From Patescibacteria group bacterium (GTDB lineage: Bacteria; Patescibacteriota; Minisyncoccia; UBA6257; UBA9933): DNA of 64,000 bases. Shown here piece after piece: positions 10,910 through 13,477 of the stretch (positions are counted from its first letter, which is position 1; each line of letters starts with the position of its first letter). The DNA lies in the NCBI GenBank assembly GCA_038065955.1, contig JBBTPY010000006.1:7626-71625 (forward strand), in the 5' to 3' direction. The translations under genes and the position numbers were made by a program. The notes under the pieces are model-generated. The model saw only the letters and a program-made list of their open reading frames with translations, was not told where the DNA came from and ran no database searches.

Positions 10910-13477
10910 ATGAATCCGCGAAAGTTGGAAAAAAAATGGCGAGTGATTTGGAAAAGAGAAGGAATTTATAAGGTTAAAGATAAAATAAAAGATAAAAAAA
11001 ATTTTTATCATCTCGTGATGTTTCCTTATCCTTCGGGAGATTTGCATATCGGCCATTGGTATAATTTCGGCCCGGCCGATGTTTTCAGTCGCTTTAAAAA
11101 AATGTCGGGGTTCAATGTTCTTTCTCCCATCGGTTTTGACGCCTTTGGTTTACCGGCGGAAAACGCGGCGATTAAAAGAGGAATCCACCCGAAAAATTGG
11201 ACTTATAAAAATATCAAGACAATGACAGTTCAGCTTGAAAGTATGGGAAATATGTATGATTGGTCGCGAAAAATTATCACCGCCGCTCCGGAATATTATA
11301 AATGGACTCAATGGATGTTTTTGCAGTTTTATAAAAATGGGTTGGCTTACAGGAAAAAAGCTTCGGCAAATTGGTGTTCAAAGTGCCATACGGTTTTGGC
11401 GAACGAACAGGTTGTTGACGGCAAATGCGAAAGATGCGACACGCAAGTTATTCAGCGTGAAATTGAACAATGGCTTTTTAAAATAACAGATTACGCGGAC
11501 AGATTATTGGATGATTTGAACGATTTAGATTGGCCGGGGAAAACGAAAACGATGCAAATAAATTGGATAGGGAAATCAGAAGGCGCAATTTTAAATTTTA
11601 AAATTACACCTTCTGCGCGGAACAGCGCGGAACAAACGCGGAACAACGCGGAAAATAAACTTCCGCGTGATTCAGCGTCAAGTCAGCGCGAATCAGCGAC
11701 AGCGATAGCTGTATTTACTACTCGTTTGGATACTATTTTCGGGTGTACTTATTTAGTGGTTGCTCCGGAACACTCTTTCGTCGCTTCGCTCCTCAGCGCA
11801 GAACAACGCGGACTTAACGCAGACTTACGCGGAATTTTAAGAAACAAAGAAGAAGTTGAAAAATATATCGAAAATGCGAAAAAGAAAACTGATTTAATGA
11901 GGACGGATTTAGCGAAAGAAAAAACCGGCGTTGAATTGAAAGGCGTAAAAGCGATCAATCCTTTTAACAATGAAGAAGTCTCGATTTTTGTTTCCGATTA
12001 TGTTTTGGGTTCTTACGGGACCGGAGCGGTGATGGCGGCGCCGGCGCATGACGAAAGAGACTGGGAATTCGCGAAAAAACATGATTTGTTGATTAAAATC
12101 GTAATTTGTCCAAATTGGCCGGCGCCGATTTGTCCCGTTTTAGAAAAAGCGTTTGTTGACGATGGCCATCTTATTAATTCGGGCGAATTTACGGGATTAA
12201 AATCCGCCGAGGCGCGGGAAAAAATGGCCGATTGGTTGGGAAAAAATAAATTGGGCGAGCGCAAAATAAATTACAAACTTCGCGATTGGCTGATTTCCCG
12301 TCAGCGGTATTGGGGGACTCCGATTCCGATTGTTTATTGCGAAAAATGTGGAATCGTTCCGGTTTCCGAAAAAGATTTACCGATAAAACTTCCTGACGTT
12401 AAAAATTATCTGCCGACTGAAGAGGGAAAATCGCCTTTGGCGAAATCGGAAAAATTTGTAAATACAAAATGCCCGAAATGCGGCGCCAAAGCCAAAAGAG
12501 AAACGGACACGATGGACACTTTTGTTTGTTCCAGTTGGTATTACTTGCGTTATACCGACCCAAAAAATAACAAAAAATTCGCCGACGCGAAAAAAATGAA
12601 AAATTGGCTGCCGGTTGATATGTATATCGGCGGAGCCGAACATTCCGTACTTCATCTTTTATACGCGAGATTTTTTACAAAAGTTTTAAATGATTTGGGA
12701 TATTTAAATTTCAAAGAGCCGTTTTCGGCTTTAAGGCATCAGGGAATAATTCTCGGCCCGGATGGTCAGAAAATGAGCAAATCTCGTGGGAACGTCATAG
12801 ACCCGGACGAGTTGGTGAAAAAATTCGGAGTCGACGCGGTGCGGATGTATTTGTGTTTTATGGGGCAATATGACCAGGGCGGACAGTGGAATCCGACGGG
12901 GATATTGGGAACTAAAAGATTTTTGGAAAGAATTTGGCGATTTTATGCCGATGCCAAATTACAAATGCGTCAGAATTTACAAAAAAATAAATTTGTAGAT
13001 TCGCGTCAATTCGTAAATTTGAATCGGTTGTTACATCAAACAGTCAAAAAAGTTGGAGAAGACATTGAAAATTTTCGATTCAATACAGCAATATCATCCT
13101 TGATGATTTTATTAAATGAGATGGAAAAACAAAATCAATTGTCAATTATCAATTGTCAATTGTTTTTGAAATTATTGGCTCCTTTCGCGCCGCATCTGGC
13201 GGAAGAATTATGGCATCAATTTGGCGAAAAAAAATCAATATTTTTACAGCAATGGCCGAAATATAATCCAAAACTAATAAAAAAAGAACAATTTGATTTA
13301 ATTATTCAGATTAACGGCAAGATGCGCGACAAAATAACTGTTTCTTCCGGTATTTCTCAAAAAGAAACGGAAGAACTGGTTAAGGGCCGGGAAAAAATTA
13401 AAAATTATCTTGTCGGCAAAAAAATCGTTAAAATTATTTTTGTACAGGATAAATTGATTAATATAGTCGTTAATTAG
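10910..13477 (+). CDS. leuS: Leucyl-tRNA synthetase carrying two short in-frame repeat-derived insertions
   Basis: 'HIGHWYN' and 'KMSKSRGN' class I motifs; CP1 editing-domain landmarks ('TTRLDT', '[15 protein letters not shown]'). Insertions at ~11590-11710 and ~11780-11835 relative to canonical LeuS. Confidence 0.95.

Follow-up and report, generated by a model that had tools for sequence, protein, structure and literature searches.

How do two essential translation genes of an ultra-small member of the Candidate Phyla Radiation (CPR; Patescibacteria) come to hold GC-rich, palindromic DNA in frame? The question is raised by a 64,000-nt stretch of a Patescibacteria group bacterium genome (GenBank assembly GCA_038065955.1, contig JBBTPY010000006.1, positions 7,626–71,625 of the forward strand), the whole of which is called the window below. 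An earlier note on this DNA had proposed that leuS, which encodes leucyl-tRNA synthetase (LeuS), and infB, which encodes translation initiation factor IF-2, contain one common element that inserts in the manner of the Rickettsia palindromic elements (RPEs). In-frame, DNA-level palindromic insertion in both genes is supported by the data presented here, and the phenomenon is far larger than that note saw, extending to many genes, to those for rRNA and to at least six phyla. The repeat is multi-copy, has the same architecture everywhere and belongs to a family that spans several phyla. We consider the best reading, with a probability of about 0.65, to be a non-autonomous selfish DNA repeat with RPE-like behaviour and a different architecture.

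The GC-rich iterated units previously described in the leuS insertions correspond to CGCRGA cores, with the extended form ACGCRGA[A/C]. Within the 64 kb these cores form clusters at exactly three places, always with a 10/11/10-nt spacing, and the GC content at the copies is 0.52–0.55 compared to 0.41 across the window. An arm was defined as CGCRGA-N4-CGCRGA-N5-CGCRGA-N4-CGCRGA, with up to three mismatches tolerated. This pattern gave five matches in the window and none in 100 dinucleotide-preserving shuffles. These five arms, at E = 4e-11 to 0.011, were also the only matches in the 64 kb to a profile made from arms in other CPR genomes. A full element consists of two inverted arms with four cores each, ∼77–95 bp overall. 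The window contains two full copies, one in leuS and one in infB, and a single arm further along leuS (Table 1). The proposal of one element common to both genes is therefore upheld, and the nucleotide similarity between them, whose loss on proper alignment would have removed the case, persists.

The second leuS insertion had been taken for another full copy of the element; it is a single arm, that is, half an element. It does match the infB copy on the opposite strand, as had been claimed (39 nt, 90% identity, BLAST E = 7e-8; infB side 54617–54655), but it does so because the infB copy is two-armed. The suggestion drawn from this match, that the element inserts in either orientation, does not hold within the window, where all three copies have their ACGCRGA arms on the coding strand in the same forward (F) orientation. 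Across the family, antisense single arms exist as a minority (five, compared to 20 sense arms, among the matches listed). The first leuS insertion and the infB copy do share both orientation and reading frame, giving the common peptide AEQ-T[RQ]NN-AE..PR[DG]-SA, and the peptides that had been quoted for the two genes are present in the translations of the open reading frames (ORFs); IDAEQTQNNAEFPR is an example from the IF-2 insert.

Both full copies in the window are predicted to form stable hairpins (−39 to −46 kcal/mol, z = −3.7 to −5.4). In leuS insertion 1 the right arm, with cores decayed to CGCTGA, still pairs with the left arm (−39.3 kcal/mol, z = −3.7), and the infB element gave −42.7 and −45.9 kcal/mol (z = −4.3 and −5.4). 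When folded alone, leuS insertion 2 formed no hairpin, and no partner arm was found for it. The element does not amount to a plain palindrome: mirroring in CPR is confined to the eight heptamer cores and their 10/11/10 phasing, with non-complementary spacers between them.

Table 1. Positions of the element and of associated features in the window (rows 1–12) and of copies in rRNA genes at two related loci (last two rows, numbered within each locus)
Feature	Coordinates	Strand	Details and basis
leuS, leucyl-tRNA synthetase, 855 aa	10910–13477	+	ORF; 100% identical to P0001, annotated Patescibacteria leucine--tRNA ligase; alignment to Thermus thermophilus LeuRS 1H3N, E = 6e-240
leuS insertion 1, one full element (11616–11698), residues 233–264, net ∼+27 aa	11606–11701	+	Orthologue comparison
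Inverted unit TCTGCG overlapping the first forward unit; left-boundary mini-palindrome TCTGCGCGGA	11612–11617	−	Architecture R4F10F11F10F
leuS insertion 1, left arm, four intact CGCGGA units, 10/11/10	11616–11652	+	Exact pattern; nhmmer E = 3e-7
leuS insertion 1, right arm with partial decay, TTCCGCG followed by TCAGCG three times	11662–11698	−	3 mismatches; nhmmer E = 0.011
leuS insertion 2, single arm (half-element), net +12 aa after APEH	11797–11833	+	Exact pattern; nhmmer E = 4e-11; preceded at 11793 by a TCAGCG unit analogous to the left-boundary unit of insertion 1
infB, short IF-2, 512 aa	53334–54872	−	ORF; P0244, MEK7657998.1, ‘translation initiation factor IF-2’; homologues have IF-2 and GTP_EFTU Pfam domains
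infB insertion (element 54618–54694), residues 56–90 (ASHESRIDAEQTQNNAEFPRGSALSPRSSAPAGGR), net +96 nt relative to the L124 gene	54603–54707	−	DNA comparison of filled and empty site
infB coding-strand arm 1, CGCGGA then three CGCAGA units	54658–54694	−	Exact pattern; nhmmer E = 3e-8
infB arm 2, inverted partner, TCYGCG units on the coding strand, 3-nt loop	54618–54654	+	Exact pattern; nhmmer E = 1.5e-10
Mini-hairpin CCTGCC-GGA-GGCAGG (PAGGR), directly 3′ of the infB element	54603–54617	−	Separate stem on folding
ORF antisense to infB, 138 aa, spanning the element	54295–54711	+	Element without stops on both strands
L095 (Harrisonbacteria) element	7668–7750		Within 16S rRNA (− strand, 7565–8000)
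L047 (Wolfebacteria), three copies	627–722, 1507–1592, 2007–2097		Within 23S rRNA (− strand, 1–2482)

Comparison with orthologues established that the segments are insertions. The ∼27 additional LeuS residues noted ahead of the VFTTRxDT block were confirmed, since most of 120 orthologues have only ∼5 residues at this site. At the DNA level, the site is empty in P0007, holds a 7-codon mini-palindrome in L123 and carries a decayed remnant in L121 (protein 74% identical to that of the window). In L120 (71% identical) there is a three-unit arm with the same left boundary as the window copy, ccTTCTGCGC, and an arm is also present at this position in a Vogelbacteria LeuS (L019). The ∼12 additional residues after APEH are equally real. 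They fall in a 13-residue gap of the T. thermophilus enzyme, and were found in none of the 119 other LeuS sequences listed; within the 120 sequences the insertion is confined to the window species. Every member of the cluster of P0243 (752 aa) has both leuS inserts in identical form. P0243 comes from a 695-kb contig of the same species, probably a near-complete genome, in which leuS is apparently frameshifted near its 3′ end; the contig carries MEK7657998.1 and MEK7657958.1.

For IF-2, the canonical turn between GAYEIxH and KKITFIDTPGH has 2–3 residues, compared to 35 in the window protein. The latter shares its 90% cluster with two 480-aa proteins that have an empty, canonical 2-residue hairpin. 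Apart from a clean 96-nt insert, the window infB is 88.6% identical in nucleotide sequence to the L124 gene, and no raised divergence or recombination tract was seen around the insert in this comparison (flank identity 0.83–0.92, 0.886 overall). In a neighbour-joining tree of IF-2 the window sequence lies within a clade of ∼45 sequences with the empty or canonical short turn, and filled sites occur in one clade of eight and in about nine scattered lineages. Had close relatives carried the same segments with unrelated nucleotide sequence, ancestral loops would have been the simpler answer; instead, the closest IF-2 relatives, one of them ∼90% identical, lack the segment and the LeuS relatives are empty or have DNA-homologous remnants. 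Each window copy is thus a lineage-specific insertion. A Wolfebacteria locus (L123) with an element-free leuS has an arm with two mismatches inside gatB (14711–14747, − strand), and copy placement is therefore lineage-specific there as well.

In structural models all three inserts appear as surface excursions between confidently modelled elements. In the AlphaFold model of IF-2 (mean pLDDT, the per-residue confidence score, 81.6), residues 56–90 are placed at the turn between the G-domain strands 49–55 and 90–96, with pLDDT below 50 for residues 59–87. In the AlphaFold2 model of LeuS (mean pLDDT 85.8), insertion 1 (233–264) lies between strands 222–234 and 265–270 with pLDDT ∼43–52, and insertion 2 (∼294–306) forms a loop between helices 289–295 and 313–323 with pLDDT ∼59. 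On the T. thermophilus structure, residues 236 and 242 flank the position of insertion 1 at the editing-domain entry, just ahead of the TTRPDT block, and the gap matching insertion 2 is within the editing domain.

To place the element in a wider context, species-representative genomes were scanned with the one-arm pattern only, which gave at least 119 loci. With uniform base composition, fewer than one match is estimated by chance in the whole collection, with a somewhat higher expectation in very GC-rich genomes; two Streptomyces matches (73–74% GC), which are probably chance or coding repeats, were for this reason not counted as members. The Patescibacteria hosts are Wolfe-, Harrison-, Lipton-, Vogel-, Jorgensen-, Kaiser-, Sungii-, Moran- and Magasanikbacteria, Paceibacterota and bins labelled Saccharibacteria. 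Elsewhere, copies occur in Nostocales isolates among the cyanobacteria (Fischerella PCC 7414, Anabaena 4-3, Nostoc FACHB-152 and Calothrix CCY 0018), in Bacteroidota (three Hymenobacter type strains and Saprospiraceae) and in Omnitrophota, Phycisphaerae, Burkholderiales/Usitatibacter, Gemmatimonadaceae and Anaerolineae. The partner arm, which lies outside the query, again has the 10/11/10 spacing in all host groups after a loop of mostly 3–18 nt, as seen in Hymenobacter, cyanobacteria, Phycisphaerae, Wolfebacteria and Harrisonbacteria. Sub-families can be told apart by the base following the core: CPR copies have A or C there, those of Omnitrophota, Planctomycetota and Proteobacteria have T, and those of cyanobacteria and Bacteroidota have GG.

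The location of the copies depends on the host. Among the matches listed, 45 of the 69 canonical copies from CPR fall within ORFs of 100 aa or more, compared to 1 of 38 copies in non-CPR genomes of up to 55% GC; of the non-CPR intergenic copies, 25 are between co-directional, six between convergent and one between divergent genes. The CPR host genes encode AtpA, TopA, CysS, UvrB, PolX, MnmA, GatB, GAPDH and RecG (identified by Pfam) and LeuS, IF-2, LepA, ThrS, UvrA, UvrC, RsmH, PGK, a ValS-like protein and FBA (identified by conserved motifs). One LepA gene has three copies, and the insertion site recurs in three UvrB genes (L017, L078 and L117) and in two MnmA genes (L033 and L096). All three forward frames are used across genes (NAD.TQ..AE, AE.RG..AD.RG and RG.TR..RG), as is one reverse frame ([PL]R.SA).

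The element is also found in rRNA genes. In a Harrisonbacteria 16S gene (L095) the apical loop of helix 44 has a 119-nt insertion where the consensus has 11 nt. A Wolfebacteria 23S gene (L047) has three copies, two of which were mapped to hairpin tips, one in a loop of 119 nt instead of 4 and one in the helix-25 region; the same gene has a 104-nt insertion without the heptamer signature at model position ∼225–232. A 2024 survey of CPR rRNA insertions described many short (<200 bp) inserts without ORFs, which were left uncharacterised and for which neither palindromes nor repeats were mentioned (PMC11270868). The L047 and L095 copies are at positions exactly like those of such inserts. They also resemble the intervening sequences (IVSs) of 23S helices 25 and 45, sporadic hairpin inserts of ∼100 nt that replace the apical loops of rRNA helices. 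Such a replacement is seen at L095 and L047, which are related loci and not part of the window. However, IVSs are defined by RNase III excision and by their location in rRNA, whereas the phased-heptamer family is present in rRNA genes, ORFs and intergenic DNA.

To determine what is conserved in the element, codons were compared between four IF-2 copies (window, L125, L126 and L025) whose host proteins are 40–57% identical. The core codons are fixed: proline is CCG in 8/8 cases, arginine CGT in 8/8, the alanine of SA GCG in 8/8 and threonine ACG in 4/4, compared to usages of these codons in the window of 51%, 15%, 33% and 31%, respectively. Identity at the nucleotide level in such diverged hosts places the constraint on the DNA or RNA rather than on the peptide, and protein-level selection on the loops was rejected on this evidence.

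Cores and spacers behave differently, and CPR and non-CPR copies differ from each other. In non-CPR hosts, spacer identity is 0.75 between different elements within a genome and 0.39 between genomes (p = 1e-25), the pattern of a recently proliferating repeat. The corresponding CPR values are 0.49 and 0.42 (p = 0.02), with exceptions such as the GatB and GAPDH copies of L053 (0.88) and, in the window, leuS insertion 2 and the infB copy (0.76). Core identity in the partner arms, which were outside the query selection, is 0.82 in non-CPR and 0.87 in CPR. Complementarity between the spacers of the two arms is 0.49 and 0.30, respectively, and covariation at the R position between paired units is marked in non-CPR copies (odds 8.6, p = 3e-4) and not detected in CPR (odds 0.47, p = 0.26). 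The CPR element is therefore a palindrome of cores only, in which the heptamers and the helical phasing are kept and the hairpin complementarity is not. As no hairpin covariation was found, a conserved RNA or single-stranded DNA hairpin was dropped as the maintained feature in CPR.

Rfam 15 has no matching family and returned only sub-threshold microRNA-precursor matches to the hairpin, and we found no description of the element in the literature on palindromic, RPE, MITE (miniature inverted-repeat transposable element) or repetitive extragenic palindromic (REP) repeats in CPR and on small dispersed repeats in cyanobacteria. It is apparently a repeat family without previous description. To our knowledge, RPEs are not phased heptamer arrays. 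The RPE likeness put forward in the earlier note stands for behaviour. In Rickettsia, RPEs are ∼150 bp long and form ten families, with 44 insertions in R. conorii of which about half are in ORFs, and many in-frame copies sit in surface loops of housekeeping proteins (PMC10969869). RPE-1 to RPE-10 (Ogata et al. 2000/2002, as summarised in PMC10969869) and the present element are alike in being short, hairpin-forming dispersed repeats with a large fraction of copies in frame in unrelated housekeeping ORFs of a reduced genome, in adding peptide segments compatible with the fold and in having no known associated transposase. The likeness does not extend to membership. RPEs measure ∼100–150 bp and are limited to Rickettsia and relatives (PMC10969869), whereas the phased-heptamer element measures 77–95 bp, is found in at least six phyla and enters rRNA genes too; its architecture of 4 + 4 ACGCRGA cores, mirrored only in the cores in CPR, also sets it apart. 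The present repeats are dispersed, form stable hairpins when two-armed and are often in frame at fold-compatible positions of housekeeping ORFs, with a size and host that are not those of RPEs. RPE is thus an analogy and not a classification.

In non-CPR hosts the closer likeness is to REP sequences and their hairpin-forming doublets (REPINs), which are mobilised by Y1 transposases of the REP-associated tyrosine transposase (RAYT) type (PMC3116915, PMC3337134, PMC3733652). Shared features are inverted doublets that form a long hairpin, singlets as remnants and the lack of target-site duplications, together with extragenic placement at 3′ ends or between cistrons, rarely between divergent genes, and near-identical copies within a genome. 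However, REP units are 20–40 bp imperfect palindromes with a GTAG or CGTC tag, whereas the arms of the present element are four direct heptamer repeats. No such tag was seen at the ends of aligned copies, and the arms are not self-complementary, as leuS insertion 2 illustrates; the REP definition fails for these reasons. Moreover, most CPR copies are intragenic, and extragenic placement is seen only outside CPR. No RAYT was seen next to element copies, for which the arm-bracketed intervals inspected were those of L024 and L056 only and no genome-wide search was made. Intragenic MITEs such as ERIC, Correia/NEMIS and Coxiella QMITE1 (PMC10969869, PMC5896051) are likewise small non-autonomous repeats that give in-frame fusions with host ORFs. 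They differ in having terminal inverted repeats derived from an insertion sequence and in producing target-site duplications; as neither a parent insertion sequence (in the L024 and L056 intervals) nor duplications (at the copies compared) were found, the MITE definition fails as well. DNA uptake sequences (Neisseria DUS and Pasteurellaceae USS) are similar in being short nucleotide-level cores, often in inverted pairs and often in ORFs in frames that are tolerated, and maintained by drive rather than by selection on the protein. They are, however, lineage-specific single 9–12-mers that arise mostly by point substitution at ∼1 per kb, whereas here arrays of eight cores arrive as insertions of 36–96 nt at low density (three elements in 64 kb) with a core common to several phyla.

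The best-supported description is of a selfish repeat that resembles REP/REPIN elements in genomes with intergenic space and RPEs in the gene-dense CPR. It has two inverted arms around a short A/T-rich loop and a spacing of about one helical turn, and would be non-coding by origin. In most phyla, copies are located between genes, at 3′ ends or between cistrons. In CPR, with almost no intergenic space, the survivors would be the in-frame, stop-free copies in tolerant protein loops or at rRNA hairpin tips, with purifying selection acting as the filter. The inserts would then be translated into polar, disordered surface loops (..NAEQTQNNAE..PRGSA.SPR.SA..), the peptides being by-products, and single and decayed arms would be the products of deletion or decay. 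We infer that the element moves, or has moved, as DNA with the aid of a trans-acting protein that recognises the phased heptamers, and, from the reading frames, that the inserts are probably translated rather than removed. Aligned copies within a genome do have sharp ends, such as TTCCCGCAGAGG...CCTCTGCGGGAA for Hymenobacter and GGAAACGCGGAGG...CCTCCGCGTTTCC for one cyanobacterium.

Several observations weigh against a selfish repeat. No target-site duplications were found at the Hymenobacter, cyanobacterial or Omnitrophota copies or at the window infB insert. A mobilising gene, master copy or parent insertion sequence was not found in the two arm-bracketed intervals inspected: L024 was rejected as an autonomous or master element, as its + and − arms are 4.4 kb apart but enclose glycosyltransferase-type genes and no transposase, and L056 was rejected because its two hairpins bracket trpA, with no transposase between them. 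The element was not found in 2.9 million viral contigs, where the only two matches come from the same phage ORF with a coding 21-nt tandem repeat (TAQITAD twice), and the plasmid collection PLSDB has no match to the cyanobacterial copy. The evidence for translation of the inserts consists of open frames. A purely neutral, decaying selfish repeat would be expected to lose cores and spacers alike, yet CPR cores are 87% intact in unselected arms while their spacers are barely shared and their arms non-complementary. Single arms in CPR ORFs have ACGCRGA on the coding strand in a ratio of 20:5 (p = 0.004, among the matches listed). Finally, the IF-2 copies of distant lineages share IF-2-specific flanks (A[PS]HES.. 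and ..PA[EG]GR), which independent transposition from other copies in the genome does not readily explain, and a mini-hairpin, CCT/TCT GCC GRA GGC AGG, is kept at the nucleotide level next to the copies of L126 and L025, whose hosts are 40–55% identical. Core retention, the common flanks with the mini-hairpin and the sense-strand bias keep a functional or drive-based reading alive.

In its functional form, such a reading takes the eight ACGCRGA heptamers, with their two-fold symmetry, as an array of sites for a conserved DNA- or RNA-binding protein, maintained by selection or by molecular drive such as biased uptake and recombination. A partition or nucleoid-organising protein, a Chi-type recombination hotspot protein or a DNA-uptake receptor would be candidates, and the protein loops would again be tolerated by-products. 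Plasmid centromeres (R1 parC) and OmpR/PhoB-type sites typically have phased arrays of 6–11 bp, and uptake sequences are found as inverted pairs that lie in frame within ORFs. By analogy, strict ∼10.3-bp phasing with free spacers would be the geometry expected for several protein copies on one face of the duplex. The CPR data fit, with conserved cores and spacing, random spacers, non-complementary arms and an R position without covariation, as do the invariant four-fold degenerate core codon positions in the diverged IF-2 hosts, the strand bias of single arms and the recurrence of one core and phasing across at least six phyla. We nevertheless hold this to be unlikely. The density is low and patchy, the closest relatives lack copies with no visible consequence, many copies are clearly decaying (the right arm of leuS insertion 1 and L121, for example), non-CPR copies act like a recently proliferating repeat and no candidate binding protein was identified; a recognition sequence common to several phyla also argues against a species-specific uptake signal. 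A broader proposal, that the phased array is the recognition site of a conserved trans-acting protein common to at least six phyla and marks a new class of mobile, homing or chromosome-organising element, with CPR copies embedded in essential protein genes and rRNAs and their cores and phasing, though not hairpin complementarity, kept at each locus by selection or transformation-based drive, strikes us as doubtful, though not far-fetched.

The recurrence of site, frame and flanks in distant IF-2, UvrB, MnmA and LeuS genes would be explained if filled segments moved between lineages by transformation and recombination in conserved flanks, possibly with the aid of a nuclease. CPR genomes generally retain competence genes. 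The diverged IF-2 copies do have a common site, frame, A[PS]HES flank and mini-hairpin while the nearest relatives of the window are empty, and free-standing nuclease-type genes accompany infB: L126 has a LAGLIDADG gene (L126:8918–9925) immediately upstream of a filled copy, with small GIY-YIG genes near filled infB genes (L126:1943–2215 and L125:2353–2607). However, the nuclease association is anecdotal, the window insert has no recombination tract in its flanks, and its identity to distant copies (0.75–0.85) is the value that fixed cores alone would give. Another route would in any case be needed for intergenic and rRNA copies and for those in unrelated genes of a single genome, and we regard homing-like spread as improbable. 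Least credible of all is that the inserts are ordinary lineage-specific protein loops whose nucleotide likeness is coincidental low complexity. The sites are indeed known variable loops with other inserts in other lineages, but chance produced no arms where the window has five, the best leuS/infB match is on opposite strands, third codon positions are fixed against genome codon usage, the same sequence is present in rRNA genes and intergenic DNA, and different genes read the same DNA in all three frames. This explanation is already refuted by the present results. The selfish repeat remains our preferred account.

Palindromic repeats that colonise essential genes in frame have until now been a speciality of Rickettsia; the present element extends this behaviour to the Candidate Phyla Radiation. 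The same element lengthens rRNA helices, providing an identity for at least some of the short, ORF-less CPR rRNA inserts (PMC11270868), and it accounts for some of the unusual variation in length among CPR housekeeping proteins. Its design of eight helix-phased heptamers is unusual, and a single core from CPR to cyanobacteria and Bacteroidota points to a specific binding partner. With recent intergenic proliferation elsewhere and old, core-only copies in CPR, the family offers a test case for selfish spread versus selection on DNA motifs. The inserts can also mislead alignments, phylogenies and gene calling in CPR; the 138-aa ORF antisense to infB, which is almost certainly spurious, is an example.

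The mini-hairpins form a pattern of their own. GC-rich and in frame, with the forms CCTGCC-GRA-GGCAGG and CCGCC-NNN-GGCGG, they are found, by themselves or immediately 3′ of the large element, in the IF-2 and LeuS of different lineages: besides the window copy, at L126:10274, at L025:2991 and in the L123 leuS (HPPSGGS, tCCGCCAtctGGCGGa). In the IF-2 proteins P0162 and P0199 the mini-hairpin is present without the large element. These sequences may represent small insertions of a class of their own, or serve as a target of the large element.

Both protein sites also receive other inserts. Across other CPR lineages (P0011, P0016, P0025, P0026, P0083, P0101, P0017, P0072, P0085 and others), the LeuS site just before VFTTRxDT (the region of window positions 11606–11620) is a hotspot that takes up unrelated inserts. 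Among these inserts are KCQMSNVKC-type peptides, which probably originate from a tandem heptanucleotide repeat, and, in Wolfebacteria, an ASCH domain of ∼130 aa (PF04266); several LeuS proteins also have NUDIX domains (PF00293) somewhere in the protein. At the IF-2 hairpin turn, a second recurrent short insert of the type PSASSGQAKK, HSTSSGQ or STGSEQ is found in many CPR lineages (P0127, P0128, P0130, P0134, P0137, P0140, P0145 and others).

Some arms are part of larger arrays. A Jorgensenbacteria ORF (L058:2769–2878) has nine forward units as perfect 45-nt tandem repeats (TQINADETQINADNK repeated), and arms can therefore also amplify in tandem within a gene. In Omnitrophota DeMMO4_15 (L011:2741–2800, L022, L067 and L087) the repeat unit is longer, ∼190 bp, with a conserved right flank, TTGAAAttatcattttactagtTATTAAat, that by its −35 and −10 boxes may resemble an outward-facing sigma-70 promoter. 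In Anaerolineae and a CPR bin (L026:582–640, L113:4333–4390 and L119:5033–5100) the arms are followed by another widespread repeat, gtcattgcgagcgaagcgaagcaatc (or gtcatgctgagcgaccgaagcgagcgaagcatc), which suggests composite arrangements of different small repeats.

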